Assembly: GCA_036785375.1 (NCBI GenBank)
Contig: JAWMAR010000392.1
Location: 1,302,001-1,366,000, forward strand
Length of the DNA stretch: 64,000 nt
Reading direction: 5' to 3'
Source: Leucoraja ocellata
Taxonomy: Eukaryota
This document shows, in pieces, positions 13,091 to 53,122 of the stretch. Every line of letters starts with the position of its first letter. The stretch's first letter is position 1. A program made the translations under genes and the position numbers. A model generated the notes under the pieces. That model was not told the origin of the DNA. It saw only the letters and a program-made list of their open reading frames with translations, and did not search any database.

Positions 13091-13091
13091 A

Positions 13092-20249: not shown

Positions 20250-20347
20250 ACCCTCTGAAGAAGGGTTTCGGCCCGAAACGTTGCCTATTTCCTACGCTCC
20301 ATAGATGCTGCTGCACCCGCTGAGTTTCTCCAGCATTTTTGTCTACC
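20250..20347 (+). ncRNA. ~98-nt hammerhead-motif element (PLE family B) with TSD
   Basis: CUGAAGA-A-GGGU(UUCG)GCCC-GAAA-CG-UU core at 20255-20282; TSD AACAGCTAA at 20241-20249 / 20348-20356. Confidence 0.65.
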
Positions 20348-20430
20348 AACAGCTAACAAGGGCTTGTTTCCTTTACCATTGTTACATTTTTTGCATTTAT
20401 TTCATTCATCATACTTTGTCTCTCAACATA

Positions 20431-20848
20431 AACCATATAACCATATAACAATTACAGCACGGAAACAGGCCATCTCAACCCTTCTAGTCCGTGCCGAACA
20501 CATAATCTCCCCTAGTCCCATATACCTGCGCTCAGACCATAACCCTCCATTCCCTTCCCATCCATATAACTATCCAATTTATTTTTAAATGATAAAAACG
20601 AACCTGCCTCCACCACCTTCACTGGAAGCTCATTCCACACAGCTACCACTCTCTGAGTAAAGAAGTTCCCCCTCATGTTACCCCTAAACTTCAGTCCCTT
20701 AATTCTCAAGTCATGTCCCCTTGTTTGAATCTTCCCTACTCTCAGTGGGAAAAGCTTTTCCACGTCAACTCTGTCTATCCCTCTCATCATTTTAAAAACC
20801 TCTATCAAGTCCCCCCTTAACCTTCTGCGCTCCAAAGAATAAAGCCTA
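20431..20848 (-). mobile_element. CR1 LINE family B 3' end
   Basis: ORF 20512-20835; tail. Confidence 0.9.
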
Positions 20849-20949
20849 TCAGCTATATCTCTCGTTTCCTTTTCCCCTGACTAGTCTGAAGAAGGGTCTC
20901 GACCCGAAATGTCGCCCATTCCTCCTCCACAGACATGTCGCCTGTCGCA

Positions 20950-21039
20950 GGTACACAAAAATGCTGGAGAAACTCAGCGGGTGCAGCAGCATCTATGGAG
21001 CGAAGGAAACAGGCAACGTTTCGGGCCGAAACCCTTCTT
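20950..21039 (-). ncRNA. ~90-nt hammerhead-motif element (PLE family B) with TSD
   Basis: Same core on minus strand; 17-bp TSD CAGACATGT(C/T)GCCTGTC at 20930-20946 / 21040-21056. Confidence 0.65.
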
Positions 21040-21810
21040 CAGACATGTTGCCTGTCCCGCTGAGTTACTCCAGTTTATTTTGGCTGTCTTTCTCTTTCTT
21101 TCGTCTTCCAAGCAAAGTTGGAGTGCAGCAGCATTGTGGCAGGGAACATATCACATCTCCAAAGGCTAGACTCCAGTCTGATTCATGGAGCCATACAGAA
21201 TGCTTCGACCCACCTTGTTCATGCCAACCAAGTTGTCATTCGAGCTGATGAAAGACACAAAATGCAGGAGTAATTCAGCGGACAGGCAGCATCTCTGATA
21301 AGCAAGAATGAATGACATTTCGGGTCAAGAATATCCGCCAACATGTCTGAAGAAGGATCTTGACATGCAACTTTTCTTTCCAGAAATGCAACCTGTACAA
21401 CTGAGATATTCCAGCGTTGTGTTGCTATCTTCGGTGTAAATGAGCATTTGCTGTTCCTTTCTACATAATTTCATCTGGCCAAGACCTATGAGCCTGCATT
21501 TGACCCATGTCTCTCTAAATCCGATCCAGGGAAATGTTTCAATATCCGTTCAAAGTTTCAATTACCACATAGAATGCTGGTGGCACAGTGTGGCGCAGCT
21601 GATAGAGCTGCTGGTGCACAGCGCCATAGAACCAGCTTCGCTCCTGACCTCAGGAGCAGTCAGTGTGGAGTTTGCACGTTTTCCCTGTGGTCAAATGGGT
21701 TTTCTCCGGATGGTCTGGTTTCCTCGCACATTCCAAAGACATACGAGTTTATAGGTTATTTAAGAAGGAACTGCAGATGCTGGAGAATCGAAGGTACACA
21801 AAAAAGCTGG

Positions 21811-22566
21811 AGAGATTTATGCCAGTTGGAAGAGTGGGCTGAAAGATGGCAGATGGAGTTTAATGCTGATAAGTGTGAGGTGCTACATCTTGGCAGGACA
21901 AATCAAAATAGGACGTACATGAACAGAGTTGAACAGTTGAACAGAGGGATCTAGGAATAACTGTGCATAGTTCCCTGAAGGTGGAATCTCATGTAGATAG
22001 GGGTGGTAAAGAAAGCTTTTGGTGTGCTAGCCTTTATAAATCAGAGCATTGAGTATAGAAGTTGGGATGTAATGTTAAAATTGTACAAGGCATTGGCGAG
22101 AACAATTCTGGAGTATGGTGTACAATTTTGGTCGCCCAATTATAGGAAGGATGATTAAAGAGAAAGGTTGAACAAGTTAGGTCTTTATTCTCTGGAGCGG
22201 AGAAGGTTAAGGGGGGACTTGATAGAGGTCTTTAAAATGATGAGAGGGATAGACAGAGTTGACGTGGATAAGCTTTTCCCATTGAGAGTAGGGAAGATTC
22301 AAACAAGATGACATGACTTCAGAATTAAGGGACAGACGTTTAGGGGTAACAGAGAGTGGTAGCTGTGTACATTGAGCTTCCAGTGGAAGTGGTGGAGGCA
22401 GGTTTAATTTTATAATTTAAAAATAAATTGGATATGTATATGGATGGGAAGGGAATGGAGGGTTATGGTCTGAATGCGGGTAGATGGGACTAGGGGAAAA
22501 TAATTGTTCGGCACGGACTTGTAGGGCCGAGATGGCCTGTTTCCGTGCTGTAATTGTTATATGGTT
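21811..22566 (+). mobile_element. CR1 LINE family B, internally deleted
   Basis: RDLCQLEEWAERWQMEFNADKC... with several deletions; tail. Confidence 0.85.
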
Positions 22567-22697
22567 AAATGGTTGAATGGGACATCTGGTGTGCATGGGA
22601 AAGTTGGGCCGAAGGGCCTGTTTCTCTGCTCTCTAGCTCTATAAGGTTAGGGGAGATGCATGAGAATCTCTGTCTATAATCACTTTTCTCGCTCTGC

Positions 22698-22860
22698 AGA
22701 TCCGGACTCTTCTCCTCTGCATCTCCTTCTTCAGGTCGGAACTTCTCCATCTTCCAGCGGCTCCCTGGACCATGTCGGCCGCCCACAAGGCCGGAGATGG
22801 TCCCCGCTTCACCGTGAGCCCGTTACGGGCCGGCTACTCGCAGGAGCCCCGCAGGATATT
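22698..22860 (+). pseudogene. Truncated NAT8-like paralog (acceptor, 5' UTR and ~29 codons)
   Basis: TTTTCTCGCTCTGCAG acceptor; ATG at 22772 gives MSAAHKAGDGPRFTVSPLRAGYSQEPRRI, homologous to the N-terminus at 33527; cut by CR1-B at 22861, remainder not seen. Confidence 0.85.
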
Positions 22861-23398
22861 ATAACCATATAACCATATAACAATTACAGCACGGAAACAG
22901 GCCATCTCGACCCTTCTAGTCCGTGCCGAACACATAATCTCCCCTAGTCCCATATACCTGCGCTCAGACCATAACCCTCCATTCCCTTCCCATCCATATA
23001 ACTATCCAATTTATTTTTAAATGATAAAAATGAACCTGCCTCCACCACCTTCACTGGAAGCTCATTCCACACCGCTACCACTCTCTGAGTAAAGAAGTTC
23101 CCCCTCATGTTACCCCTAAACTTCAGTCCCTTAATTCTCAAGTCATGTCCCCTTGTTTGAATCTTCCCTACTCTCAGTGGGAAAAGCTTTTCCACGTCAA
23201 CTCTGTCTATCCCTCTCATCATTTTAAAAACCTCTATCAAGTCCCCCCTTAACCTTCTGCGCTCCAAAGAATAAAGCCCTAACTTGTTCAACCTTTCTCT
23301 GTAACTTAGTTGCTGAAACCCAGGCAACATTCTAATAAATCTCCTCTGTACTCTCTCTATTTTGTTGACATCCTTCCTATAATTAGGCGACCAAAATT
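22861..23398 (-). mobile_element. CR1 LINE family B 3' end
   Basis: ORF 22944-23330; tail. Confidence 0.9.
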
Positions 23399-23409
23399 GA
23401 TAAGGCCAA

Positions 23410-23830
23410 TAATGTCCAAAGGGGACCTTCGGATGTTCAGAAGCTGTGGCTGGGCTTGCACGTCATCACTTCCTACAAAGCAAAACCAGGAGACAGCTCA
23501 AGCAACAGCAAAGCGTCACTCCCTAACGAGCTCTATCCATTCTACACACGCTTTGATGGGGAGAACACTAATGTGCCTTCTCGGCCGCCCATAGCCCCCG
23601 GATGGTATTACAGTCTCAGACCCAGATACCGACTTCAGAAGATCCTTCAGGAGGGTGGACCCTCGGCCTGCACCAAAATGGTATACCTGGTCATGTTATT
23701 AAATTCTGTACAAACCAACTAACTGGAATTTTGTTGACATTATTTGACCTTCATTATTGAGGGCTAATGTTTCCACCTGGTTTGAAAGGGCATCAATAAT
23801 ACCAGTGCCCAAGAAGAGCAAGGTAACATT
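23410..23830 (+). mobile_element. Rex1/Babar-like LINE internal fragment, degenerate
   Basis: LHVITSYKAKP...ASLPNELYPFYTRFD and 'IIPVPKKSK' motifs. Confidence 0.65.
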
Positions 23831-23832
23831 GG

Positions 23833-24122
23833 GGAGGCATGGCGGCGCAGCAGTACAGTTGTTGGCTGACACTGCCAGGGACCCGAGGTCAAGCCTGTCT
23901 ACAGGTGGTGGCTGCACAGAGTTTGCACGTTCTCCCTCTCTGACCACATGTTTTCCCCAAGTGCTCCGGTTTCATACCACGCTCCACAGACGTACAGGTT
24001 TGTAGCTTAATTGGCTTTGGTAAAGATTGAAAATTGCCACTCGTGTATGTAGGATAATGTGAATCACTGGTCAGCGCCAACTAAGTGGGCCAAAGTGCCT
24101 GTTTCCACGCTCTATCCCTAAA
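23833..24122 (+). mobile_element. tRNA-derived SINE
   Basis: GGCATGGCGGCGCAGCAGTA head, SINE body and CR1-like tail. Confidence 0.6.
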
Positions 24123-24294
24123 CTAGTCCTCATCAAAGCCTCATTGACTAATGACCGATGGCACTTACGTCCGTGGTGATTGTGCTTTTACAGGTTGGTT
24201 GTGGTGCAATTCAACTCCCACCGTAGCAAGAACAAGAACCCACTATAATCTGCCTACTACCACTACAGTAGTTGTGTATTAAAATTAGTAGTAA

Positions 24295-24685
24295 ACTTGC
24301 TCAACGCATCACTGGTTCCACGCTCCCCTCCATTGAGTCTGTCCAAAGCAAGCGCTGTCTGCGGAGGGCGCTCAGCATCGCCAAGGACTGCTCTCACCCC
24401 AACCATGGACTGTTTACCCTCCTACCATCCGGGAGGCGCTACAGGTCTCTCCGTTGCCAAACCAGCAGGTCGAGGAACAGCTTCTTTCCGGCGGCTGTCA
24501 CTCTACTCAACAACGTACCTCGGTGACTGCCAATCACCACCCCCCCCCCCCCCCCCCGACACTTATTATTATTTATTCAAATTGTTTGCTATGTCGCTCT
24601 TCAAGGGAGATGCTAAATGCATTTCGTTGTCTCTGTACTGTACACTGACAATGACAATTAAATTGAATCTGAATCTGAATCTGAA
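24295..24685 (+). mobile_element. Rex1/Babar-like LINE 3' end
   Basis: AQRITGSTLPSI...LLPSGRRYRS...RNSFFPAAVTLLN; (AATCTG)n tail. Confidence 0.85.
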
Positions 24686-24939
24686 CAGATCAACGGAGGA
24701 TTCAATCTCACCAGCTCTCCACTCTGCACTGGACCAATTTGATGACAAAAACAAAGTGAGTCTGAAGAAGGTTCTTGACCCAAAACGTCACCCATTCCTT
24801 CTCCCCAGAGATGCTGCCTGTCCCGCTGAGTTACTCCAGCATTTTGTGTCCGTTTTCGGTTTAAGCCAGCATCTGCAGTTCCTTCCAACACATGGAACCC
24901 TATAGGTCAGGCTGGTGTTCATAGAATACAGATCATAGA

Positions 24940-25900
24940 CTACAGTTCTGGTCGCCAAATTATAGGAAAGATGTCAACAAAATAGAGTGAGTACAGAGGA
25001 GGTTTACTAGAATGTTGCCTGGGTTTCAGCACCTAGGTTTCAGAGAAAGGTTGAATAAGTTAGATCTTTATTCTTTGGAGCGCAGAAGGTCAAGGGGGGA
25101 CTTAATAGAGGTCTTTAAAATGATGAGAGGGATAGACAGAGTTGATGTGGATACGTTTTTTCCATTGAGAGTAGGGAAGGTTCAAACATGATTTGAGAAT
25201 TAAGGGACAAAAGTTTAGGGGCAACATGAGGGGGAACCTCTTTACTCAGAGAGTGGTAGCGCTGTGGAATGAGCTTCCAGTGGAAGTGATGGAGGCAGGT
25301 TCGATTTTATTATTTAAAAATAAATTGGATAGGTATATAACCATATAACAATTACAGCACGGAAACAGGCCATCTCGACCCTTCTAGTCCGTGCCGAACA
25401 CCTAATCTCCCCTAGTCCCATATACCTGCGCTCAGACCATAACCCTCCATTCCCTTCCCATCCATATAACTATCCAATTTATTTTTAAATGATAAAAACG
25501 AACCTGCCTCCACCACCTTCACTGGAAGCTCATTCCACACAGCTACCACTCTCTGAGTAAAGAAGTTCCCCCTCATGTTACCCCTAAACTTCAGTCCCTT
25601 AATTCTCATGTCATGCCCCCGTGTTTGAATCTTCCCTACTCTCAGTGGGCAAAGCTTTTCCACGTCAACTCTGTCTATCCCTCTCATCATTTTAAAAACC
25701 TCTATCAAGTCCCCCCTTAACCTTCTGCGCTCCAAAGAATAAAGCCTTAGTCCAAAGAATAAAGCCCTATGTATACGGACGGGAAAGGAATGGAGGGTAT
25801 GGTCTGAGTGCAGGTAGATGGGACTAGGTGAGAGTAAGTGTTCGGCATGGACTAGAAGGGCCGCGATGGCAAGTTTCCGTGCTGTAATTGTTATATGGTT
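24940..25900 (+). mobile_element. Older CR1-B with a younger antisense CR1-B nested at ~25337-25768
   Basis: Plus-strand family B sequence resumes after the minus-strand insert. Confidence 0.85.
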
Positions 25901-26349
25901 ATATATGGTTATCAGGACGTTCAACATCATCACCCTCCAGGCCAGTTACTAAGCTCACGGAAGTGGATCTCTGCGCATACCTTCTGCAACTGAATCCTCG
26001 ACGTCCTTAGCAACAGACCACAAACGGAATGAATTGTCACCAGCACTTCCCCCTCAAAATACACCTGCACCGGAAAAAACTCAAAGCGACGTGATCAGCC
26101 GCCAGCCCTACTCACTCAATAATCACGATGCAGTTCAAACACCATCTTCAGGTTCACCGACGGCACCACCGGCACAGCGGTATAGTTGCTGCCTTGCAGT
26201 GCCGGAGGCCCAAGTTCGATCCCGACGGGTGCTGTCTGTATGGAGTTTGTACCTTCTCCTCATGTCCATGTGGGTTTTCTCCAAGATCTTCCGTTTCCTT
26301 CCACACTTGGGAAATGTAAAAATTGTCCCTCGTGTGTGTTGGAGGTTAT

Positions 26350-26951
26350 TAACCATATAACCATATAACAATTACAGCACGGAAACAGGCCATCTCGGCC
26401 CTACAAGTCCGTGCCGAACAATTTTTTTCCCCCTTAGTCCCACCTGCCTGCACTCATACCATAACCCTCCATTCCCTTCTCATCCATATGCCTATCCAAT
26501 TTATTTTTAAATGATACCAATGAACCTGCCTCCACCACTTCCACTGGGAGCTCATTCCACACCGCTACCACTCTCCGAGTAAAGAAGTTCCCCCTCATAT
26601 TACCCCTAAACTTCTGTCCCTTAATTCTGAAGTCATGTCCTCTTGTTTGAATCTACCCTATTCTCAAAGGGAAAAGCTTGTCCACATCAACTCTGTCTAT
26701 CCCTCTCATCATTTTAAAGACCTCTATCAGGTCCCCCCCTTAACCTTCTGCGCTCCAAAGAATAAAGACCTAACTTATTCAACCTATCTCTGTAACTTAG
26801 TTGTTAAAACCCAGGCAACATTCTAGTAAATCTCCTCTGTACTCTCTCTATTTTGTTGACATCCTTCCTATAATTGGGCGACCAAAATTGTACACCATAC
26901 TCCAGATTTGGTCTCACCAATGCCTTGTACAATTTTAACATTACATCCCAG
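26350..26951 (-). mobile_element. CR1 LINE family B (AGRWD subfamily)
   Basis: Near-identical to 14993-15606. Confidence 0.9.
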
Positions 26952-27263
26952 CGGACCCGGTGTACCGTGGGGTATTATGTGGGGATCGTTAGTCAGCGCG
27001 GACCCGGTGTACCGAAGGGCCCGTTTCCGCACTGTATCTCTAATTAAACTAAACCACCGTTGTTGGACCAATCGCAGACGATGAGTCAGAGTATAGAATG
27101 AAATATAGAACAGGGTATAGACTATTTTAAAGACCTCTATCAAGTCCCCCCTTAACCTTCTGCGCTCCAGAGAATAAAGACCTAACTTATTCAACCTATC
27201 TCTGTAACTTAGTTGTTAAAACCCAGGCAACATTCTAGTAAATCTCCTCTGTACTCTCTCTAG

Positions 27264-27678
27264 ATACTCTCTAGAATTTAGAAGATTGAGAGGGGATCTT
27301 ATAGAAACTTACAAAATTCTTAAGGGGTTGGACAGGCTAGATGCAGGAAGATTGTTCCCGATGTTGGGGAAGTCCAGGACAAGGGGTCACAGCTTAAGGA
27401 TAAAGGGGAAATCCTTTAAAACCGAGATGAGAAGAACTTTTTTCACACAGAGAGTGGTGAATCTCTGGAACTCTCTGCCACAGAGGGTAGTTGAGGCCAG
27501 TTCGTTGGCTATATTTAAGAGGGAGTTAGATGTGGCCCTTGTGGCTAAGGGGATCAGGGGGTATGGAGAGAAGGCTGGTACGGGATACTGAGTTGGATGA
27601 TCAGCCATGATCATATTGAATGGCGGTGCAGGCTCGAAGGGCCGAATGGCCTACTCCTGCACCTAATTTCTATGTTTC
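27264..27678 (+). mobile_element. CR1 LINE family A 3' end
   Basis: ORF 27286-27591; tail. Confidence 0.9.
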
Positions 27679-28329
27679 AAACGAAACGCCGTTATCACTA
27701 CATAGATATATAGTGATAGGTAGAGATATAGATATGTTTGTGTGTTTTTAATATATGCTCCACAGCAGCAACAAACATTATTACAGTCAGATCACTTTAT
27801 GCAAAATTATTGAATTAAGGTCTGAAGGGTCTCGACTCGAAATGTCACCCATTCCTTCTATCCAGAGATGTTGCCTGTCCCACTGAGTTACTCCAGCATT
27901 TTGTGTCTATCTTCAATTGAAATCACCATCTGCAGTGGCTCCTACACATTGAATAATGTGCAGAATTTATTGTGTATCGTCTGACTATGTGGCTCTCGTG
28001 CTGCTGCAAGCAAGATTTCTCCTGTTCTGGAATTACATCGTTCCTGGTCAAATGACAATAATCTCAATTTGATGTAACAATGCCCTCTAGTTTTAGATTC
28101 CCTCGCCCTGGGGAAAATGCTGTGACGACCCCCCTCATCCAGGCCCTCAGATCTCTTTCACGGAAATAATCCTAGCCAATCCAATCTCTCCCGATAAGCA
28201 CCCCAGTTCTGGCAACATCCTGCTGAATCCTTTCTACACCCTTCGTAGCTCTATGACAGTCCCTCCCACAGCAGTACTCCAAATACATAGCATTGTTAAT
28301 ATGGTAGACAAAAATACTGGAGACACTGT

Positions 28330-29117
28330 GATAAATGTCAGGTACAAGAAGCTAACATAGCGCACTCTTTTGTTTTCTGTATAAAAATTCAAAAATTCTG
28401 GAACGAAATATTTGAAATCTTTACAAAATTATTTAAAACAAAACTTCTACCCAGAGTAGAATGGATCATTTTTTGGAATATCGGAAGGTAACCCAGAATT
28501 AAATATGTTTCAAAAGAACTTACTTAATTATGGGCTAATAATGGGGAAAAAAGATTATACTTAAATTTTGGAAAAATGCTCCAATACCAACAACAAAAAT
28601 GTGGATTTCAAACATGTTCGAAACATTACACTTGGAAGAGATGAGACTCCTCCTAGCAGGTAAAGCAGATCACTTCCAAAAGACGTGGTCTGCATTTATG
28701 GAACTATTACAAGCTAAGGTGCAATAATAAGTTAAAATATAAAGGCTACCAGGACCTGGTAATGGGGGGTATAAAATACATTTTTAATAAAAACATGGTT
28801 GGTATATCCTTTTTTGCGGAGTTTTGTGTTACAATAGAGCGATTGATTTTCCTTTTTTCCTTTTTTTCCTTTTCTTTCTAGGGCCTTAATTATTTTCTTT
28901 GCTTCCTTCTCTAATTCCTCCCGAAGGGGTTCTTTTCTCCCAACTCTTTCCTGCACCTTCACGATTCTTGCTTACTTTTCTTACTTCTTTTATTTCTTTC
29001 TCTTTTAAAGCTCAAAAAATGAAGTGGTACAACATAATGTAATAAGATATATGCGATGTATTAATGTGATTTACTGTACTGCTAATAAAAATAAAATTAA
29101 AAAAAATTAAAAAAAAT
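28330..29117 (+). mobile_element. L1-clade LINE 3' end
   Basis: KIQKFWNEIFEIF...ILKFWKNAPIPTTKMWISNMFETLHLEEMR...W ORF2 end; pyrimidine-rich UTR; AATAAA and A-rich tail. Confidence 0.75.
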
Positions 29118-29309
29118 ATTGGAGAAACAGAGTTGTTCTAGCATTTTTGTCAACCTTAGATTTTCCAGCATCTGCAGTTCCTTCTTAAACTTATTAATGT
29201 TGTATTTTTAATTATTGTTATATATTATCTGCGAGTTATTGTGTTAACGCTCCTGTTAGGTTCTATTGTCGGTAGATAAGACAATTGAACACTTTGAAGC
29301 ATGGTCTCA

Positions 29310-29557
29310 CCAATTTTTACACAGAGAGTGGTGAAATCTGTGGAGTTCTCTGCCACAGAAGGTAGTTGAGGCCAGTTCATTGGCTATATTTAAGAGGGAG
29401 TTAGATGTGGCCCTTGTGGCTAAAGGGATCAGGGGGTATGGAGAGAAGGCAGGGATGGGATACCGAGTTGGATGATCAGCCATGATCATATTGAATGGCG
29501 GTGCAGGCTCGAAGGGCCGAATGGCCTACTCCTGCACCTATTGTCTATGTTTCTATG
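29310..29557 (+). mobile_element. CR1 LINE family A 3' end
   Basis: ORF2 end and UTR. Confidence 0.85.
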
Positions 29558-29588
29558 TATTGTCTTGTCCTGGTGTAACACGGACAGG

Positions 29589-29879
29589 ATTCCACTGTAC
29601 GAGGTAATTCAAGAGTTCTCCCGAGTTTAAAACTAAATCGGACTCGTGGTGAGTACGCAGAATGTACTTACCGAGTACGTTGGAGCTCGGGACACCTCTT
29701 AGCGGCTCGTAACGCTAACGGCAGGTAACCGGGAAACTCGTGAAGATTTTTCAACATTGTGAAAAATGTCCACGAGAGTCCCGATTACCCACGGGCGGCC
29801 ATTACCGTAATTCTCCGAGTTGGAATCAGGGGAAACTCGGGAGAACTCTTGAATTACCTCGTACAGTGGGACAGGGGCT
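29589..29879. mobile_element. Palindromic non-autonomous DNA transposon (MITE type 2)
   Basis: Long inverted repeat CCACTGTACGAGGTAATTCAAGAGTTCTCCCGAGTTT / AAACTCGGGAGAACTCTTGAATTACCTCGTACAGTGGGACAGGGGC. Confidence 0.75.
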
Positions 29880-30017
29880 TTGAATGCCAAGAAGTCCAGA
29901 GTGTATAATTACCACACGCACTAACAATGGAACAATTAAATTCTTACTTACATAAGCCTTTCGGCCTGCAAACACAAAACACATAGTCTATAAAGAATGA
30001 AATTTGAATAAATATAA

Positions 30018-30507
30018 CCATATAACCATATAACAATTACAGCACGGAAACAGGCCATCTCGGCCCTACAAGTCCATGCCGAACAAATTATTTTTTCCCC
30101 CTTAGTCCCACCTGCCTGCACTCATACCATAACCCTCCATTCCCTTCTCATCCATATGCCTATCCAATTTATTTTTAAATGATACCAATGAACCTGCCTC
30201 CACCACTTCCACTGGGAGCTCATTCCACACCGCCACCACTCTCTGCGTAAAGAAGTTCCCCCTCATATTACCCCTAAACTTCTGTCCCTTAATTCTGAAG
30301 TCATGTCCTCTTGTTTGAATCTTCCCTATTCTCAAAGGGAAAAGCTTGTCCACATCAACTCTGTCTATCCCTCTCATCATTTTAAAGACCTCTATCAGGT
30401 CCCCCCTTAACCTTCTGCGCTCCAGAGAATAAAGACCTAACTTATTCAACCTATCTCTGTAACTTAGTTGTTGAAACCCAGGCAACATTCTAGTAAATCT
30501 CCTCTGT
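30018..30507 (-). mobile_element. CR1 LINE family B flanked by an ~80-bp direct duplication
   Basis: ORF 30102-30488; 29938-30017 repeated at 30512-30591. Confidence 0.9.
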
Positions 30508-31588: not shown

Positions 31589-32114
31589 TAAGGAACTGCA
31601 GACACAGGAATCTGACGAAGAACACAATTGCTCTAGTAACTCAGCGGGTTAAGGTACCATCTCTGGTGGACATTGATAGGTGATGTTATGGGTTGGGACC
31701 CTTCATCCCAAGAAGTTGAGGTGTTTAGAGGCTTTCTGTGTGATTACATCAAGGTGCTGGGCCCAGGACAGATCTTCAAATATACACACCAGAAGTTTAA
31801 AGTACTTGAGTTTCTCCACTGCTGACCCTTGATCCATGTAATCAGTTTAGGGGTCCCTGTGCAGCTTGATGTGTGTATGGGACAATACCTAATCTTGATC
31901 TACTCCAGCTCCAATGCCCTTTACTTCCCCTCCACACCCCATCCCCATCGCATCTCCCCCTCCCCACTCCCCCCCCCCCCCCACTCTCCCCACCCCTTCT
32001 CCTCCTCTCTCCCCCCTATGACTCCCCTCATCCATCCTCTCAATTCTCCTCCCCACCATCTCCGGCTATCCACTCCCATCCCCATCCCTCCACCCCCCCC
32101 CCCCCCAACTTGAT

Positions 32115-32409
32115 ACACAGCTTAAGGATAAGGGGGAAATCCTTTAGAACCGAGATGAGGAGAACTTTTTTCACACAGAGAGTGGTGAATCTCTGGAACT
32201 CTCTGCCACAGAGGGTAGTCGAGGCCACAGTTCATTGGCTATATTTAAGAGGGAGTTAGATGTGGCCCTTGTGGCCAGGGGGATCAGAGGGTATGGAGAG
32301 AAGGCAGGTACGGGATACTGAGTTGGATGATCAGCCATGATCATATTGAATGGCGGTGCAGGCTTGAAGGGCCGAATGGCCTACTCCTGCACCTAATTTC
32401 TATGTTTCT
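32115..32409 (+). mobile_element. CR1 LINE family A 3' end
   Basis: [23 protein letters not shown]...; tail. Confidence 0.9.
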
Positions 32410-32705
32410 AACTTCCTCTACCCTCCTCTTCTCCTTCTCCCCTCCCTTCATTCCTCCCCACCCCTCCTCTCTCCTCCCTATCCCTGCTCCAACTACGTAC
32501 CTCCCCGCACTCATCCCTCCACTCACCTCCCCTCCTCTCCTCTCCCCTCACCAATCAGCTCAAAGACTATATCTAGTCATTTATCTTAGCCACAAGGGCC
32601 ACATCTAACTATATCTAGTCATTTCGTTGTCTCTGTACTGTACACTGACAATGACAATTAAAATTGAATCTGAATCTGAATCTGAATCTGATCTAGTCAG
32701 GACGT

Positions 32706-32715
32706 TTTATTTATT
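32706..32715 (-). terminator. Overlapping AATAAA poly(A) signals of the NAT8-like gene
   Basis: AATAAATAAA on minus strand ~60 nt after the stop codon. Confidence 0.6.
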
Positions 32716-32771
32716 GACATGACTCCCCTCCCCAACGAAATGAGATTGTGTTCCCAGTCGGGACGTTTGGT

Positions 32772-33527
32772 CTATTGACGCCCCTGTCTCCCTGTCACTG
32801 GGGCCCCTTGGTAGGAATGACCGGCGTCCAGAAGGTCCAGCCTCAGCTCGCACACATAGATGTTGGTGACCCAGGATAGCAGGGCCAGTCCGGGCATGGG
32901 ATCGGCGTCCCTGGTCATCCGAAAGCCCTGGGCTAGATAGAGCCGGATGGCGGGCTGCTGGACGGTGGAGGTGTACAGGACACACTCCCGGTAGCCGCTG
33001 TCCCGGGCGAACTCCAGCACCCGGCGGGTCAGTCTGCAGCCCAGCCCCAGACCCCGGCATCGCCGGTCCACCGAGAGGCGGAGGAGCTGGCAGCAGCCCG
33101 GCTGTCCCTCGGCCTTCTGTGCTGCCACCACCCCTCGCAGCCCACCGTCTCCCCCCTCCTCCTCCACCACCCAGAACCCCGACCCCGGCCTCCCCATGTA
33201 GGTCCCCTCAATGTCCGCCATGTCCCCCTCCAGCTGCTGCTTCACGTACCCGGCGTATATCAGGCGGCAGGCCAGGTACAGGAGGGCTAGCAGCGCGGCG
33301 ACGGGCAGAGCGGCCCAAGCCAGCGGCCAGCCGGCTCCGTAGACAGCGGCCCCGGTAGCCAGAAGGAGACAGTGCACGGCGGGCGACTGCAGGGCCCGGC
33401 GGAATGCCGGCCAAGGGAGATCCAGCAAACCCTCCGAGAAGATCCTGCGGGCCTCCGGTGTGTCGCCGGCCCGGAACGGGCGCACGGTGAAGCGGGGACC
33501 CCCTCCAGCCTTGTAGGCGGCCGACAT
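32772..33527 (-). CDS. nat8: NAT8/camello-like GNAT N-acetyltransferase, 251 aa, single coding exon
   Basis: Kozak GGACCATG; hydrophobic membrane segment (LLLATGAAVY...LLALLYLAC); DMADIE..Y...SGFWV; acetyl-CoA motif A RCRGLGLG; LYTS..QQPAIRLY...GF; (CT)n-CAG acceptor ending at 33595. Symbol denotes the family; orthology not established. Confidence 0.88.
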   Translation of the reverse strand: MSAAYKAGGGPRFTVRPFRAGDTPEARRIFSEGLLDLPWPAFRRALQSPAVHCLLLATGAAVYGAGWPLAWAALPVAALLALLYLACRLIYAGYVKQQLEGDMADIEGTYMGRPGSGFWVVEEEGGDGGLRGVVAAQKAEGQPGCCQLLRLSVDRRCRGLGLGCRLTRRVLEFARDSGYRECVLYTSTVQQPAIRLYLAQGFRMTRDADPMPGLALLSWVTNIYVCELRLDLLDAGHSYQGAPVTGRQGRQ

Positions 33528-33884
33528 GGTCCAGGGAGCCGCTGGGAGGTTGTGGAGGAGGTGCTTCGGCCAGAGGAAGGGGAGGTGTCTGGATCTGCAG
33601 AGCGAGAGAGAGAGAGAGAGAGAAACATCAAGTGAGGCAGAGGTCCCAGGGCTGCCAACTCTCACGCAATTCATATAACCATATAACAATTACAGCACGG
33701 AAACAGGCCACATTGTACGGGCTTGTTGGACTAGGGCAGTTGCTAAATTCAGCTCCCAGCATGGATCACAATAATGGAACAGAGCACATAGAACAGTACA
33801 GTACAGCACATGAATGTGCCCTTCAACCCACAGTGTCTGTGCCGAACATGATGCCATGATCATCACTTATCTGCCTGTCCATAA

Positions 33885-34391
33885 TCCATATAACCATATA
33901 ACAATTACAGCACGGAAACAGGCCATCTCGGCCCTACAAGTCCGTGCCGAACAATTTTTTCCCCCTTAGTCCCACCTGCCTGCACTCATACCATAACCCT
34001 CCATTCCCTTCTCATCCATATGCCTATCCAATTTATTTTTAAATGATGCCAATGAACCTGCCTCCACTACTTCCACTGGAAGCTCATTCCACACCGCTAC
34101 CACTCTCTGAGTAAAAAAGTTCCCCCTCATATTACCCCTAAACTTCTGTCCCTTAATTCTGAAGTCATGTCCTCTTGTTTGAATCCTCCCTATTCTCAAA
34201 GGGAAAAGCTTGTCCACATCAACTCTGTCTATCCCTCTCATCATTTTAAAGACCTCTATCAAGTCCCCCCTTAACCTTCTGCGCTCCAGAGAATAAAGAC
34301 CTAACTTATTCAACCTTTCTCTGTAACTTAGTTGTTGAAACCCAGGCAACACTCTAATAAATCTCCTCTGTACTCTCTCTATTTTGTTGAC
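33885..34391 (-). mobile_element. CR1 LINE family B (AGRWD subfamily)
   Basis: ORF 33966-34454; tail. Confidence 0.9.
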
Positions 34392-34619
34392 TTCACGTAA
34401 TTTTAACGCTCTAACGCTGATCACAGGATTTCTCACGCTCAAAAAAACACACATTTAAAAACAATACAAATAAATAAATGAAGTCACGGACAATTCACTT
34501 AGCCCAAGGCTTCCAGATCTCATTCACCCTCACAAATGAGAATAGTTTTCTGTCGCCGGGTTTTCCCGTAAAGAACAAGCAATTTGGCCTAAGATCATCG
34601 CACACTTAAAAAAAGTGCA

Positions 34620-34770
34620 GACAAAAATGCTGGAGAAACTCAGCGGGTGAGGCAGCATCTATGGAGCTAAGGAATAGGCGACGTTTCGGGTCGAGACCCT
34701 TCTTCAGACTCAAGCATTTTTCCTGCACTTTTGTCTACCTTCGATTTTTCTAGTATCTGCAGTTATTTCT
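34620..34770 (-). mobile_element. Penelope-like terminal repeat with intact hammerhead core (family A stem II)
   Basis: Minus strand AGTCTGAAGAAGGGTCTCGACCCGAAACGTCGC at ~34678-34710. Confidence 0.7.
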
Positions 34771-35699
34771 TAAACATTTAAAATGGCAATGTAACTGCAG
34801 TACTGATGAGTCAATTTGACATTGGGGTCAAGGAAAGAGCGTTCACGTCGCGGCCCTGTTTCCACCAATCTTTCCACCACCACGCACAAGAAGCAACAAG
34901 ACAGACACCATTGTATACAGATGCCGAGAAGTGTGTCCAGCACCGACTGATCAACTTCTAATCTTGTGTGTGGACTCGATAAGAAGAAGAAGAATTTGAC
35001 ATTCATGGANNNNNNNNNNNNNNNNNNNNNNNNNNNNNNNNNNNNNNNNNNNNNNNNNNNNNNNNNNNNNNNNNNNNNNNNNNNNNNNNNNNNNNNNNNN
35101 NNNNNNNNNNNNNNNNNNNNNNNNNNNNNNNNNNNNNNNNNNNNNNNNNNNNNNNNNNNNNNNNNNNNNNNNNNNNNNNNNNNNNNNNNNNNNNNNNNNN
35201 NNNNNNNNNNNNNNNNNNNNNNNNNNNNNNNNNNNNNNNNNNNNNNNNNNNNNNNNNNNNNNNNNNNNNNNNNNNNNNNNNNNNNNNNNNNNNNNNNNNN
35301 NNNNNNNNNNNNNNNNNNNNNNNNNNNGTATATGTATGTGGGCGTGTATATATATGCATATATTTATGTGTGTATATGTATGTGTGTGTATGCATGTGTA
35401 TATGTCTGTGTAAATATGTGTGTAAATATGGTTACATAGCTCCTCGTTGTACGTATGTCCAGGTGACAATAACAAACCCCAACTTAAACCCAATAATATG
35501 AACATTGAATTCTCAAATGTCAAGTGATAGTCTCCCTACACCCACTGTTCTCCTACCCATCGCCGATGTGTACCCATTTCTTCCACCACCCTGGTCACCT
35601 TATTCCCTTCCTCTCCTTCTTACAACAGACACCAAGATGCAGCACAGAACGCCACGGGCTGCCTAACTGTACATCTCCCCCTTTTGCCTTGCTGTAGAC

Positions 35700-38170
35700 T
35701 GACCCCCCCACCCCACCCCACCCCCACACTCCCGCCACTCCCCACACTCCCCCCAACCCCCCCCCCACTCCCCCCAACCCCCCCACACTCCCCCCAACCC
35801 CCCCCCAACCCCCCCCACACTCCCCCCAACCCCCCCCCCCACACTCCCCCCACTCCCCCCAACCCCCCCCACACTCCCCCCAACCCCCCCCCACACTCCC
35901 CCCAACCCCCCCCCCCCACTCCCCCGCCCACACTCCCCCCAACCCCCCCCCACACTCCCCCCAACCCCCCCCACACACTCCCCCCCCCCACACTCCCCTC
36001 AACCCCCCCCCCCCCACTCCCCCCCCCACTCCCCCCCCAACCCCCCCGCCACACTCCCCCCAACCCCCCCCACACTCCCCCCAACCCCCCCCCCCACACT
36101 CCCCCCCCCAACCCCCCCCCACTCCCCCCCCACACTCCCCCCACCCCCCCCCCCCCACTCCCCCCAACCCCCCCCCCACACTCCCCCCAACCCCCCCCCC
36201 CCACTCCCCCCCCCACCCCCCCCCCACTCCCCCCCCACTCCCCCCCCAACCCCCCCCCCCACACTCCCCCCAACCCCCCCACACTCCCCCCCCCACACTC
36301 CCCCCACCCCCCCCACACTCCCCCCAACCCCCCCCCCACACTCCCCCCCCCCACACTCCCCCCAACCCCCCCACACTCTCCCCAACCCCCCCCCCCACAC
36401 TCCCCAACCCCCCCCCACACTCCCCCCAACCCCCCCCCCCCCCACACTCCCCCAACCCCCCCCCACACTCCCCCCAACCCCCCCCACACTCCCCCCAACC
36501 CCCCCCCCCCCCCCACACTCCCCCCAACCCCCCCCACACTCCCCCCAACCCCCCCAACCCCCCCCACACTCCCCCCAACCCCCCCAACCCCCCCCACACT
36601 CCCCCCAACCCCCCCCCCACACTCCCCCAACCCCCCCCCCACACTCCCCCCAACCCCCCCCCACACTCCCCCCAACCCCCCCCCCACACTCCCCCCCAAC
36701 CCCCCCCCCACTCCCCCGCCCACACTCCCCCCAACCCCCCCCCACACTCCCCCCAACCCCCCCCACACTCCCCCCAACCCCCCCCCACACTCCCCCCAAC
36801 CCCCCCCCCACACTCCCCCCAACCCCCCCACTCCCCCGCCCACACTCCCCCCAACCCCCCCCCACACTCCCCCCAACCCCCCCCACACTCCCCCCCCACA
36901 CTCCCCCCACTCCCCCCCCCACACTCCCCCCAACCCCCCCCCCACTCCCCCCCCCACACTCCCCCCCAACCCCCCTCCACACTCCCCCCACTCCCCCCCC
37001 ACACTCCCCCCCAACCCCCCCCCCCACTCCCCCAACCCCCCCCACACTCCCCCCAACCCCCCCACACTCCCCCCAACCCCCCCCCACACTCCCCCCCCCA
37101 CACTCCCCCCAACCCCCCCCCACACTCCCCCCAACCCCCCCCCCACACTCCCCCCAACCCCCCCCACTCCCCCCAACCCCCCCCCCACTCCCCCCAACCC
37201 CCCCCCACTCCCCACAACCCCCCCCCCCACACTCCCCCCAACCCCCCCCACTCCCCCCAACCCCCCCCCACACTCCCCCCAACCCCCCCCCCACACACTC
37301 CCCCCAACCCCCCCCCACACACTCCCCCCAACCCCCCCCCCCACACACTCCCCCCAACCCCCCCCCCCCCACACACTCCCCCCAACCCCCCCCCCCCACA
37401 CTCCCCCCAACCCCCCCCCCACACACTCCCCCCCCCCACACACTCCCCCCAACCCCCCCCCCACACACTCCCCCCCCCACACACTCCCCCCAACCCCCCC
37501 CCCACACACTCCCCCCAACCCCCCCCACACTCCCCCCAACCCCCCCCCCCACACACTCCCCCCAACCCCCCCCCACACTCCCCCCAACCCCCCCCACACT
37601 CCCCCCAACCCCCCCCACACTCCCTAACCCCCCCCACACTCCCCCCAACCCCCCCCCCCACACTCCCCCCAACCCCCCCACACTCCCCCCCCAACCCCCC
37701 CCCCCCCCACACACTGCCCCCAACCCCCCCCCCCACACTCCCCCCAACCCCCCCCACACTCCCTAACCCCCCCCACACTCCCCCCAACCCCCCCCCCCAC
37801 ACTCCCCCCAACCCCCCCACACTCCCCCCCAACCCCCCCCCCCCCACACACTGCCCCCAACCCCCCCCCCACACTCCCCCCAACCCCCCCCACACACTCC
37901 CGCCACTCCCCCCCCCCCACACTCTCCCCACCCCGCCCCCCCCACACACGACCTCACCCCCCCCCCACACTCCCTCCAACCCCCCCCCCCCCCACACACT
38001 CCCCACAATCCCCACCCCCCCACACACTACCTCACCCCCACACTCTCCCCGCCCCCCACACTCTCCCCAACCCCCCCCCCCCCACACTCTCCCCAACCCG
38101 TCCCCCCCCCCCCACACACGACCTCACCCCCCACACTCCCCACACTCAGCACAACCACCACACTCCCCCC
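35700..38170. repeat. C-rich minisatellite, ~20-bp unit C(n)ACACTC(n)AA
   Basis: Over 100 degenerate units with variable C-run lengths. Confidence 0.95.
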
Positions 38171-38179
38171 AAACTGAGA

Positions 38180-38425
38180 TTCACACAGAGAGTGGTGAAT
38201 CTCTGGAACTCTCTGCCACAGAAGGCAGTTGAGGCCAGTTCATTGGCTATATTTAAGAGGGAGTTAGATGTGGCCCTTGTGGCTAAGGGGATCAGGGGGT
38301 ATGGAGAGAAGGCAGGTACGGGATACTGAGTTGGATGATCAGCCATGATCATATTGAATGGCGGTGCAGGCTCGAAGGGCCGAATGGCCTACTCCTGCAC
38401 CTAATTTCTATGTTTCTATGTTTCT
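38180..38425 (+). mobile_element. CR1 LINE family A 3' end
   Basis: ORF2 end, UTR and tail. Confidence 0.9.
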
Positions 38426-39124
38426 AAACCCCCCGCCTCACACTCCCCCCCACATCCCCCCCAAACCTCCACAATCTTTGTACACACCCAATCCTGTACT
38501 TTGATTTCATGTTTCATGTATCGTGAGTTTTCCGACTGTTGGCAGTGGAATTTCCCACTTGGGATGAATAAAGTTGAATAAAGTATCATTTCCTATATCC
38601 TCCATCTCCCCCATTTCCATTTGATCTCCCCTCTCTCCCCTCCTGCCTGTTCCCACTCCACCCTTATCCCTCTCTCTGGTTTTACAGTCCGATGCCCCTC
38701 CCTTCCCCTTTTACACCAACCTTTGGTCTCCTTTACGACTACAACCTTTGTCACTGTCTCCACGCATCTGTCAGTGAATTCTACTCCTACCCTCCGCCTT
38801 CACCTACACGGTCCCACTGAGATGAGCGCAAGAGGATGGCTTCCCCCTTCTCCGCTCCACCTATCTCCTGATGCCCACACACACACCCCTCCGCCCCTGA
38901 GATCATCCTGAGCAAGAAATGGATGCCCGCTGCCTCCAGCACTGGTTTGCCGGATTCACCCTCCCCTCCCCCCTACATCTCTCCACACCCCCACCCCCTC
39001 CCCCCTACATCTCTCCACAACCCCACCCCCTCCCAGGCCGGCTACTGAACGCCTGGGTAGACGGACGTCCTACGGTGGGTGGGATACGGGGTGGGGTTGG
39101 TTGGTCTCCATGCAGGTGCAGCAG

Positions 39125-39810
39125 GCTAGGCATGCAGGTGCAGCAGGCAGTAAAGAAAGCGAATGGCATGTTGGCTTTCATAGCAAGAGGATTTGAGTAT
39201 AGGAGCAGGGAGGTTCTACTGCAGTTGTATAGGTTCTTGGTGAGACCACACCTGGAGTATTGCGTGCAGTTTTGGTCTCCAAATCTGAGGAAGGACATTA
39301 TTGCCATAGAGGGAGTGCAGGGAAGGTTCACCAGACTGATTCCTGGAATGTCAGGACTGTCTTATGAAGAAAGACTGGATAGACTTGGTTTATACTCTCT
39401 AGAATTTAGGAGATTGAGAGGGGATCTTATAGAAACTTACAAAATTCTTAAGGGGTTGGACAGGCTAGATGCAGGAAGATTGTTCCCGATGTTGGGGAAG
39501 TCCAGGACAAGGGGTCACAGCTTAAGGATAAGGGGGAAATCCTTTAAAACCGAGATGAGGAGAACTTTTTTCACACAGAGAGTGGTGAATCTCTGGAACT
39601 CTCTGCCACAGAGGGTAGTTGAGGCCAGTTCATTGGCTATATTTAAGAGGGAGTTAGATGTGGCCCTTGTGGCCAAGGGGATCAGAGGGTATGGAGAGAA
39701 GGCAGGTACGGGATACTGAGTTGGATGATCAGCCATGATCATATTGAATGGCGGTGCAGGCTCGAAGGGCCGAATGACCTACTCCTGCACCTAATTTCTA
39801 TGTTTCTATG
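39125..39810 (+). mobile_element. CR1 LINE family A
   Basis: ORF 38919-39719 from [10 protein letters not shown] onward; tail. Confidence 0.9.
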
Positions 39811-39861
39811 TCTCGTGGGGTCGTAGGGGGAGGCGAGCGAGGGAGCAGGGGGTGTGCCGAC

Positions 39862-39990
39862 ACTCACCGCCACTCGCTGCGTTGTCTGCAGTAGACTGGA
39901 CCCGGTTCTCAGCAGAGGGTGCCCGGTTAAAGATTAACACAGTCCGTCGCAGCTGGACTCTGTACGGCCGGCCTTCCCGGGACAAGGCAN
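39862..39990 (-). promoter_or_regulatory. Putative promoter and non-coding exon 1 of the intact NAT8-like gene
   Basis: Donor GCG|GTGAGT at 39867-39862; CpG-rich; HNF1-like palindrome GTTAAAGATTAAC at 39926-39938; homologous region upstream of the second paralog. Confidence 0.55.
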
Positions 39991-40338
39991 NNNNNNNNNN
40001 NNNNNNNNNNNNNNNNNNNNNNNNNNNNNNNNNNNNNNNNNNNNNNNNNNNNNNNNNNNNNNNNNNNNNNNNNNNNNNNNNNNNNNNNNNNNNNNNNNNN
40101 NNNNNNNNNNNNNNNNNNNNNNNNNNNNNNNNNNNNNNNNNNNNNNNNNNNNNNNNNNNNNNNNNNNNNNNNNNNNNNNNNNNNNNNNNCAAAACGTCAC
40201 CCATTCCTCTCTCCAGAGATGCTGCTTGTCCCGCTGAGTTATTCCAGCATTTTGTGTCTAGCTTCGAGCTCAAAGACTTTTTCTTCACGGGACGTTTCCT
40301 TCATTGACATGCACCCAACCCCGTGTCCCGAGACCTCC

Positions 40339-41057
40339 TCAGTCGGGATGACCGGCGTCCAGAAGTCCAGCCTCATCTCGCACTGGTAGATGTTGGTGAC
40401 CCAGGATAGCAGGGCCGGTCCGGGCATGGGCTCGGCGTCCCTGGTCAGCCGAAATCCCTGGGCTAGATAGAGCCGGATGGCGGGCTGCTGGACGGTGGAG
40501 GTGTACAGGACACACTCCCGGTAGCCGCTGTCCCGGGCGAACTCCAGCACCCGGCGGGTCAGTCTGCAGCCCAGCCCCAGACCCCGGCATCGCCGGTCCA
40601 CCGAGAGGCGGAGGAGCTGGCAGCAGCCCGGCTGTCCCTCGGCCTTCTGTGCTGCCACCACCCCTCGCAGCCCACCGTCTCCCCCCTCCTCCTCCACCAC
40701 CCAGAACCCCGACCCCGGCCTCCCCATGTAGGTCCCCTCAATGTCCGCCATGTCCCCCTCCAGCGTCTCCCTCAGGTAGCGGGCAAAGACCATGCGGCAG
40801 GCCAGGTAGAGGAGGGCTAGCAGCGCGGCGACGGGCAGAGCGGTCCCAGGTGAGCGGCCAGCCGGCTCCGTAGACGGCGGCCCCGGCAGTCAGGATCAGG
40901 CAGGCCGCGGCTGGCGACTGCAGGGCCCGGCGGAAGGCCGGCCAAGGCATGTCCATCACACCATCGGAAAATATCCTGCGGGCCTCCGGCGTGTCGCCGG
41001 CCCGGAACGGGCGCACGGTGAAGCGGGGACCATCTCCGCCTTGTGGACGACCGCCAT
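40339..41057 (-). pseudogene. Tandem NAT8-like paralog with three 1-bp indels (pseudogene or assembly errors)
   Basis: ATG at 41057; -1 at ~41038, +1 at ~40845, -1 at ~40365 relative to the intact copy; 40456-40764 identical to 32926-33234. Confidence 0.8.
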
Positions 41058-41351
41058 GGTCCAGGGAGCCGCTGGGAGATGGAGGATTTAACTCCAGGGG
41101 GCAATTTTGCCCACCCAGAGGGTACATTTCGGCTACATTTGTAGATTCTGGATTTGTACATATTTGTTCTCATTGACAGACTGTGTTTGGTGCGGGTATA
41201 CCGGTATATGTTCATCATTAGTTGTTCATAAATAAATGAAATAACATTGTTATGTGCTATTAATGCTGCCTGGGGTAAATGGGAACCCCTGGCCTAGGCC
41301 AAGGTGTAGTGAGGATAGGTGTTCAGTGAAACGATGACCCATGCCTTGGTC

Positions 41352-41853
41352 ACCATATAACCATATAACCATATAACAATTACAGCACAGAAACAGGCCA
41401 TCTCGACCCTTCTAGTCCGTGCCGAACACATAATCTCCCCTAGTCCCATATACCTGCGCTCAGACCATAACCCTCCATTCCCTTCCCATCCATATAACTA
41501 TCCAATTTATTTTTAAATGATAAAAACGAACCTGCCTCCACCACCTTCACCGGAAGCTCATTCCACACAGCTACCACTCTCTGAGTAAAGAAGTTCCCCC
41601 TCATGTTACCCCTAAACTTCAGTCCCTTAATTCTCAAGTCATGTCCCCGTGTTTGAATCTTCCCTACTCTCAGTGGGAAAAGCTTTTCCACGTCAACTCT
41701 GTCTATCCCTCTCATCATTTTAAAAACCTCTATCAAGTCCCCCCTTAACCTTCTGCGCTCCAAAGAATAAAGCCCTAACTTGTGCAACCTTTCTCTGTAA
41801 CTTAGTTGCTGAAACCAGGCAACATTCTAGTAAACCAGGCAACATTCTAGTAA
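41352..41853 (-). mobile_element. CR1 LINE family B 3' end
   Basis: ORF 41440-41787; duplicated 5' junction. Confidence 0.9.
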
Positions 41854-42120
41854 ATGTCAGATGTCACAGCGATACATTGGAGACCAGATGCCAACAGCCG
41901 CCCCTGAGATTGGCAAATTCCCGCCTACTGCTCCTTTCAGCCGGTTGTTGAATGCCCTGGTAGTGGGACGTCCCGCGGCGGGATGAGGGTGGGTGTGGGG
42001 GGGAGGTGGGGGGGGGGGGGGGGGCTGAGGTGGTTGGGCTCACCTCCTTGTGCTGTTCAGATGTGGGAGGAGGAAGGGAGAGGGGGGGAGGGATCAGAGA
42101 GGGACGGAGGCAGTGCTCAC

Positions 42121-42325
42121 ACTCACCTTCTGGTTGCTGGCTTCTCCTTGAGATAGACGCGACCCGTCTCTCAGCGGATGACGGTACACAAAAAAGCTGG
42201 AGAAACTCAGCGGGTGCAGCAGCATCTATGGAGCGAAGGAAACAAGCAACGTTTCGGGCCGAAACCCTTCTTCAGCAGATGACGTCCGTTAACGGCTGAA
42301 CAGCCCGGAGACTCTGGACTCTTGT
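42121..42325 (-). promoter_or_regulatory. Putative exon 1/promoter of the second NAT8-like paralog
   Basis: Donor AAG|GTGAGT at 42126-42121; patchy homology to 39862-39965; decayed HNF1-like site at 42288-42301. Confidence 0.45.
42184..42272 (-). ncRNA. ~90-nt hammerhead-motif element (PLE family B) with TSD
   Basis: Same core as 20250; TSD CAGC(G/A)GATGACG at 42172-42183 / 42273-42284. Confidence 0.65.
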
Positions 42326-53022: not shown

Positions 53023-53122
53023 TAAATGCGTGGCAGGTAATAAATAGGTCAACCTGAATTTGCGAAAGATATAATCATAGATTTATAGAGTACAAGAGCA
53101 GGCCCTATGGCCCACCCTGTCT

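Follow-up and report, generated by a model that had tools for sequence, protein, structure and literature searches.

Short hammerhead-bearing insertions in Leucoraja ocellata as probable stumps of a Penelope-like element

Contig JAWMAR010000392.1 of Leucoraja ocellata (assembly GCA_036785375.1) contains, within the 64,000 nucleotides from position 1,302,001 to 1,366,000 that we call the window, three insertions of ~90 nucleotides that each carry a hammerhead ribozyme core. The locus raises the question of whether such units are mobile elements in their own right or pieces of a larger one, and of what fixes their ends. A preliminary description, made from the letters of the window alone, reported three inserts with common ends and their own target site duplications (TSDs), and these are indeed present, with TSDs of 9, 17 and 13 bp (Table 1). 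We find that the inserts are the ribozyme-bearing end, or pseudo-long terminal repeat (pLTR), of an autonomous Penelope-like element (PLE), and not a separate mini-element. Such units are very probably stumps of this PLE, and their 5' ends are concentrated around the start of the ribozyme core. Positions are numbered here from the C of the CUGAAGA core as +1, with 0 for the base that precedes it and -1 and so on for those before.

The source element

An intact PLE of 3,946 bp was found in the same genome by a search with an N-terminal piece. Its hammerhead (+1 to +28) is followed by a leader, a first ATG at +165, an open reading frame (ORF) of 1,221 amino acids counted from the first methionine (the open frame spans 1,233), and a pyrimidine-rich 3' untranslated region (UTR) of 120 nucleotides. 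The single ORF combines a reverse transcriptase (RT), with YIDD at residue 868, and, C-terminally, a GIY-YIG endonuclease, with YIGETKR near the C-terminus. Between RT and endonuclease lies a cysteine linker, C-X4-C-X2-C, at residues 1088 to 1096, and a CX2-5CxxC motif is described at this place in PLEs (PMC8557442). By itself the linker points to a Neptune-type element, and Nematis elements have the same linker. Matches of a sister copy to the Pfam models RVT_1 (E = 4e-6) and GIY-YIG (E = 0.007) are both under the Pfam cut-offs, but are genuine despite these scores. Head-to-tail arrays of the intact element, with a period of 3,946 to 3,985 bp, are present at loci L181 (contig C300), L182 (C8), L186 (C265) and L187 (C1), and many array members have fully open frames. 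Judged by its sequences, this is a young PLE family, and probably an active one.

The link to PLE hammerheads that had been drawn earlier is substantiated by this element. Copies 1, 2 and 3 of the window are 95.7%, 95.1% and 96.7% identical to the intact element at L181, and all 20 RT-endonuclease frames recovered with the GIY-YIG fragment of the window have the unit 120 to 126 nucleotides after the stop codon. The 28-mer at +53 to +80 of the unit occurs 87,331 times in the 3.44-Gb genome, and a 28-mer from the end of the PLE ORF 15,130 times. The PLE within the window that was proposed to mobilise the units, at 52206-53022, contains only the last ~370 nucleotides before the ribozyme, lacks an RT and is interrupted. 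It is therefore another stump, and not the mobiliser.

Copies were sampled solely by matches to the +53 to +80 28-mer, with at most two mismatches. They were taken from the window, from loci around the first matches on contig C1 and from 34 stretches picked by position, and matches less than 650 nucleotides from the upstream edge of a locus or less than 300 nucleotides from its downstream edge were excluded. The sample comprises 129 copies, or 117 once duplicated loci are removed, with one duplicate pair still included.

The preliminary description instead proposed a tiny non-autonomous family, similar to retrozymes or short interspersed elements (SINEs), which would be re-copied from its own short loci by PLE protein acting in trans. 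A pronounced length peak, individual TSDs and a very high copy number agree with such a family, as do the origin of non-LTR (long terminal repeat) retrozymes from PLE pLTRs (bioRxiv 10.64898/2026.07.22.740005) and isolated short head-to-tail dimers at L260 and L285. However, no short-only haplotype, common leader or array occurs in the sample. The haplotype spectrum is similar in short and extended copies (p = 0.19 in a small sample), as is the fraction with a tail (21 of 63 and 16 of 35, respectively; p = 0.28), a 5' leader is shared by only one of 903 pairs of short copies, that pair being a duplicated locus, and two of 164 anchor matches (one 234-nucleotide pair) have a same-strand neighbour within 400 nucleotides. 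Given that haplotypes and tail ratios are common to short and long copies, and that shared leaders and tandem arrays are lacking, the units are not a self-propagating SINE or retrozyme. Their 5' ends also differ from copy to copy, and both tailed and tail-less ends occur, as among long copies. A stump that ends at +93 is unable to yield tailed offspring, and tailed short copies are therefore not offspring of tail-less stumps. Moreover, stumps stop at the RT start site, without the downstream RNA that the protein of an anole PLE requires (PMC11167929). The whole unit aligns to the PLE and has no tRNA-derived head, ARAGORN detects no tRNA genes in the window, and helix I of the ribozyme is broken in two of the three window copies. 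We regard a separate family as very improbable, and a minor short-only subfamily may exist, given the small sample.

The ribozyme and the ends of copies

The hammerhead core was parsed correctly in the preliminary description, and reads in all three copies as CUGAAGA, an extra A, GGGU-UUCG-GCCC, GAAA, CG and UU. These features correspond to the minimal type I hammerheads of PLEs (PMC4209133), whose descriptor includes CUGANGA, an extra base between positions 9 and 10.1, a stem II with G10.1-C11.1, GAAA, a palindromic 15.2-16.2 and NUH, and whose palindromic helix III is suited to dimers. Helix I usually has 4 to 5 bp in this class, but 2 bp in a Drosophila virilis variant (PMC4209133), which is also all that the intact element and copy 2 can form; copy 1 has one U.G pair, and helix I cannot form in copy 3. 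As copies 1 and 3 lack an unbroken helix I, cleavage is not expected of most such stumps. The earlier suggestion that cleavage would probably require a dimer is supported, and the self-duplex of GAAACGUU is assigned -5.7 kcal/mol. An alternative hairpin at +11 to +25, at -5.0 kcal/mol compared to -5.1 kcal/mol for stem II, occludes GAAA, and inverted junctions are especially frequent at +11. U occupies the cleavage position in most copies of the young family.

Rfam hammerhead models, which the preliminary description put forward as a check, yield no match at E <= 1 in the window or at E <= 10 on the pLTR of the intact element. On free folding the hammerhead is not the minimum-energy fold, and z-scores are within +/-0.7 in six folds. 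The predicted cleavage site lies between +28 and +29. RNA cleaved at this position cannot template a unit that starts at -1, so the main class of units would derive from uncleaved RNA, in agreement with what was seen in vitro for the anole element (PMC11167929).

Both ends of the sampled copies are far from random. At the 3' side, 69 of the 117 copies end at ~+93 (no tail), 44 at ~+130 (with tail) and four elsewhere. The 5' ends that fall short of the core start number 6 at +31 to +53, 12 at +14 to +30 and 29 at +2 to +13, and another 35 copies end at -5 to +1, with a mode of 12 at -1. Farther upstream there are 1 at -30 to -6, 7 at -130 to -31, 6 at -330 to -131, 4 at -590 to -331 and 17 beyond. 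Thus 64 of the 117 copies end between +13 and -5, with an abrupt edge at -5, and the stop rate is 7.1% per nucleotide at -5 to +1 versus 0.18% at -130 to -6, a ratio of 39. Among short non-inverted copies in the sample, 26 of 43 have a TSD score of at least 9 (9 to 21 bp, mode 14), compared to a mean of 0.12 and a maximum of 1 when the flanks of the same 43 copies are swapped. The motif duplicated around copy 1 is single at the matching place in related copies of its host repeat at L206, L027 and L319. Opposite-strand neighbours were found for 38 of the 164 anchor matches.

Genome-wide counts have the same edge. Exact matches to +1 to +27 number 36,086, and drop to 33,078, 30,473, 24,691, 21,182 and 16,745 as one, two, three, four and six upstream bases are added. 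The losses amount to 8.3%, 7.9%, 19.0% and 14.2% at bases 0, -1, -2 and -3, 20.9% over the next two, and 53.6% over all six nucleotides, in counts to which point mutation and subfamily variants contribute besides truncation, above all at -4/-5. An older family, whose upstream UTR differs from that of the young family, loses 51% of its matches within 4 nucleotides (23,567 to 11,459), and a crude classifier divides its 92 copies reaching +1 into 46 short, 20 inverted and 26 extended. In a DNA-like run, contig depth rises at the same 5' edge, a step that is inflated by UTR divergence. The length peak anticipated in the preliminary description is therefore real, in the end histogram as in the genome-wide counts, and the distribution is not smooth. 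Its alternative proposal of RT truncation at the ribozyme holds insofar as the PLE truncation is stereotyped, but the main stop is at -1 to -5, on the 5' side of the core, and not at the cut site (+29). In the literature that we searched, which covered few subscription journals, we found no account of PLE stumps that stop at a fixed 5' edge, or of genomic copies that end at the hammerhead cut. Figure S2 of PMC11167929, on the coverage of genomic copies and reads, may bear on stump ends.

A minor class of ends coincides with the predicted cut. Five sampled copies (four events) end at +29, compared to five over 28 neighbouring positions (Poisson p ~4e-5 at that rate). Patterns counted genome-wide with two mismatches occur 542 times at +29, 207 at +30, 445 at +28 and 346 at +31, and these are raw counts for which the chance factor differs between patterns. 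Point or slippage variants of intact cores make up about half of 20 inspected matches at +28 and 7 of 20 at +31, whereas symmetric inversions, some double-counted, make up 7 of 30 inspected at +29. A rough correction leaves a two- to threefold excess at +29. Several of the 30 loci are joined, often via A-rich bases, to +128, +199, +201, +226 or an ORF position. Insertions of 3 to 12 nucleotides exactly between +28 and +29 number 25 and include six that are independent and not local duplications (five A/T-rich and one GAA), while a control site three bases upstream has 10 matches and no A/T-rich fillers (p = 0.03 counting all six, with this single control). Together, the +29 ends, A/T-rich fillers and template jumps are suggestive of hammerhead cleavage in vivo, but are not proof of it.

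Accounts of the stop position

We favour, as moderately probable, a mechanism in which RT starts in the leader of the RNA and runs off the RNA 5' end after ~95 or 132 bases. The source is the hammerhead and 5' leader of the tandem PLE, upstream of the first ATG. Initiation at two internal sites would set the fixed 3' ends at +93 and ~+130, which appear as genomic ends here and were demonstrated in vitro with the anole PLE (PMC11167929). The 5' ends that heap at +13 to -5 in the young and older families would reflect the RNA 5' end, which may lie at the stop edge. On comparison with the initiator consensus, the TCAGT at this edge appears initiator-like, and a similar TCACT is present in a rotifer pLTR (PMC3846280). 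Stumps would then be integrated run-off products of RT that started on the upstream leader, in the form of strong-stop-like complementary DNA (cDNA) joined to the target via microhomology or a small number of filler bases. For longer copies, RT would have to start on the downstream pLTR of a tandem transcript or jump between templates, and hammerhead-cut templates might supply a minor route to ends at +29. Stumps are predicted to be inactive from the outset, and truncated copies with a single pLTR are the usual outcome for PLEs (PMC4209133; bioRxiv 10.64898/2026.07.22.740005). Jumps from -1/-2 into element RNA, to +232 at L260 and to +10 to +36 at L334, L379, L361 and L366, fit a template end.

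Several observations weigh against run-off. There is no cap-G signature, as G precedes 34.2% of -2 ends and 35.0% of the background; G precedes 40.0% of -1 ends compared to a background of 33.7%, an excess that A-to-G decay could explain. Oligo-dT and single-cell RNA reads from a related organism (A), which contains at most 0.57 of the sampled words (0.77 for organism B), exhibit no pile of starts or ends, and 76 to 96% of them continue into unrelated sequence. The Penelope element of D. virilis has an intron 46 bp downstream of its start that ends at helix I (PMC2377424, PMC4209133), which places the transcript start there ~120 nucleotides upstream of the ribozyme. Inverted copies make up 21 of the 64 in the peak, and fold-back hot spots at +11 and +23 feed the broad peak at +13 to -5. 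The first 5.5 Mb of one contig supply most of the sample, five of the 117 copies come from the window, and the mixture of causes in the exact-match counts also applies here. As a separate observation, single-cell reads over the unit (L181:4620-5220, runs X22 and X23) are ~4 times more frequent on one strand as sequenced, irrespective of library direction.

The main rival to run-off is a roadblock at -1 to -5 on a longer RNA, whether from protein binding at the pyrimidine tract and CAG just upstream, which resemble a 3' splice site, or from the margin of the folded ribozyme. The tract and CAG adjoin the stop edge in both families, 35 of the 70 copies that reach +1 read through, and the lack of a cap G and the D. 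virilis intron that ends at helix I (PMC4209133) are also in keeping with this account. However, a guessed spliced junction, for which one donor was tried, has no genomic matches. Fillers between TSD and element are shorter than 10 nucleotides in 25 of 26 cases, and therefore no upstream exons were copied. RT is expected to stop at a structure on entry, that is, on its 3' side, yet few copies end there, at ~+20. We consider a roadblock unlikely. That truncation is instead smooth, and the peak a product of later deletion, of selection against copies with the pyrimidine tract and AG, or of alignment failure in the UTR, is very unlikely: the UTR upstream of -6 is of low complexity and varies among subfamilies, and an initial classifier did place long copies among the short ones, but TSDs directly adjoin the 5' ends in 26 of 43 copies, so these ends were made at insertion and the account is largely refuted, while a uniform cull cannot give a ~30-fold rise in stop rate from +40 to -1 with an at-risk set that falls only from 117 to 70, and the drop at -1/-2 lies in bases common to the observed subfamilies.

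Features of the window and known elements

The coordinates given in the preliminary description are slightly shorter than those in Table 1 because bases shared by element and duplication were assigned to the TSD. Its placement of two copies within another PLE repeat stands, in that copies 1 and 2 lie in the same older PLE end. Copy 3, which it placed in a NAT8 exon-1 region, has a GNAT acetyltransferase frame (Pfam PF00583) ~1 kb downstream, and no RNA reads from related organism A cover the unique flanks of this copy. The window is rich in CR1/L2 DNA.

Table 1. Coordinates of insertions, duplications and other features in the window
Feature	Position	Strand	Remarks
Copy 1	20254-20347	+	Short PLE insertion, 0 to +93; hammerhead core 20255-20282, predicted cut after 20282
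Copy 1 TSD	20241-20249 / 20348-20356		9 bp, exact
Copy 1 filler	20250-20253		4 nt; reads as inverted bit of +8 to +14
Copy 2	21044-20950	-	Short PLE insertion, -1 to +93; 2-nt filler at 3' junction
Copy 2 TSD	20930-20946 / 21040-21056		17 bp, 1 mismatch; 5 bases common with element 5' end
Copy 3	42275-42183	-	Short PLE insertion, +1 to +93
Copy 3 TSD	42171-42183 / 42272-42284		13 bp, 1 mismatch; 4 bases common with element 5' end
Fourth short copy	34619-34710	-	Intermediate subfamily, -2 to +90; inverted tail piece adjoining, ~34717-34780
Older PLE 3' end	20160-21140	+	3' UTR, hammerhead at 20886, tail; host of copies 1 and 2
CR1-type fragment	~20430-20845		Interrupts older PLE end
5'-truncated PLE copy	52206-53027	-	-373 to +93; GIY-YIG end, no RT
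CR1-type fragment	52427-52827		Interrupts 5'-truncated PLE copy
Older-family hammerhead units	e.g. 2300, 24761, 47113, 51732, 56443		~20 window sites; 70-80% identical to young unit
GNAT acetyltransferase frame (PF00583)	32772-33524	-	
GNAT acetyltransferase frame (PF00583)	40239-41169	-	Split across two frames in assembly
Motif like hepatitis delta virus (HDV) ribozymes	34814-34875	+	Rfam CPEB3_ribozyme 28.1 bits (gathering 35); 3' catalytic part appears degenerate
C-rich short tandem repeat	35531-38232		~2.7 kb, low complexity; source of long proline-rich frames
Long hairpins	13053-13131; 53500-53703		Weak microRNA-model scores, far under gathering; probably inverted repeat ends

The two GNAT frames are near-duplicates. 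A 19-nucleotide core of the HDV-like motif occurs 910 times in the genome, and the motif is therefore a member of a repeat family. Elsewhere in the genome, a recurring composite at L033, L034, L059 and L206 consists of an inverted PLE stump inside long inverted repeats with G/C runs, and may be a mobile unit or a local duplication. On contig C1, at ~0.3 to 2.8 Mb, many insertion loci are doubled in mirrored order (e.g. L049/L068, L041/L075 and L038/L078), either through inverted duplication of a large region or as an artefact of assembly.

In LTR elements, RT starts near the 5' end of the RNA, and the minus-strand strong-stop cDNA is a short run-off product that must jump to be extended. The comparison with stumps is one of analogy only, as here RT would be primed at a nick in chromosomal DNA and its short product integrated, with no tRNA primer or integrase. 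Insertions of endonuclease-positive Neptune-type PLEs (PMC8557442, PMC3846280) resemble those in L. ocellata in their ORF with RT and C-terminal GIY-YIG, cysteine linker, tandem or partial-tandem copies, pLTR hammerhead, optional tail of 37 to 38 nucleotides, heavy 5' truncation, inverted 5' pieces, TSDs and microhomology joins. Truncation and solo pLTRs are described for these elements, but in the parts of those papers considered here no edge comparable to the single position near which about half of our sampled copies stop. Solo pLTRs without TSDs have been ascribed to recombination or deletion (PMC3846280), whereas the present stumps carry TSDs.

The Poseidon element PAc of Anolis carolinensis (PMC11167929) similarly has two internal RT starts that set 3' ends with or without the tail, and a hammerhead upstream of them. 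Unlike the PLE studied here, whose first ATG is downstream of both RT starts, the PAc ORF begins in stem II. That study found no RNA reads that start from the hammerhead cut and, in the portion considered here, 5' ends are not treated, whereas in L. ocellata a minor class of genomic copies begins exactly where the cut is predicted. Non-LTR retrozymes (bioRxiv 10.64898/2026.07.22.740005) share with our units an origin in PLE pLTRs, a type I hammerhead, the absence of coding sequence and dispersed monomers. They are, however, defined as tandem, with at least two consecutive hammerheads, whereas the units here are monomers flanked by TSDs and not bounded by cleavage sites. The same source notes that most PLE insertions are 5'-truncated and have one terminal repeat. 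Truncated single-pLTR insertions are thus already known, and our literature search, which covered few subscription journals, turned up neither so sharp a 5' edge nor a class of ends at +29.

The element itself is ordinary, in that the units appear to be stumps of a very active PLE, and its value lies in the data set. Some 87,000 near-identical young copies, along with intact masters, allow the mechanism to be tested directly through a junction map of the whole genome, and the intact tandem elements are a ready in vitro template. A more speculative view, which we hold at slightly less than even odds, is that the genome is a fossil map of the PLE cycle, in which integrated strong-stop cDNA would mark the RNA start at -1 to -5, and a minor product with ends at +29, untemplated A/T-rich bases and template jumps spanning the site would mark the germline hammerhead cut. 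Four jumps land at +199 to +232, and under this view they hint at a leader RNA of ~230 nucleotides, of which tens of thousands of copies would have been retroposed in trans, an output that is SINE-like but could not propagate. If true, this fossil map would constitute genomic evidence for germline cleavage by a minimal PLE hammerhead.

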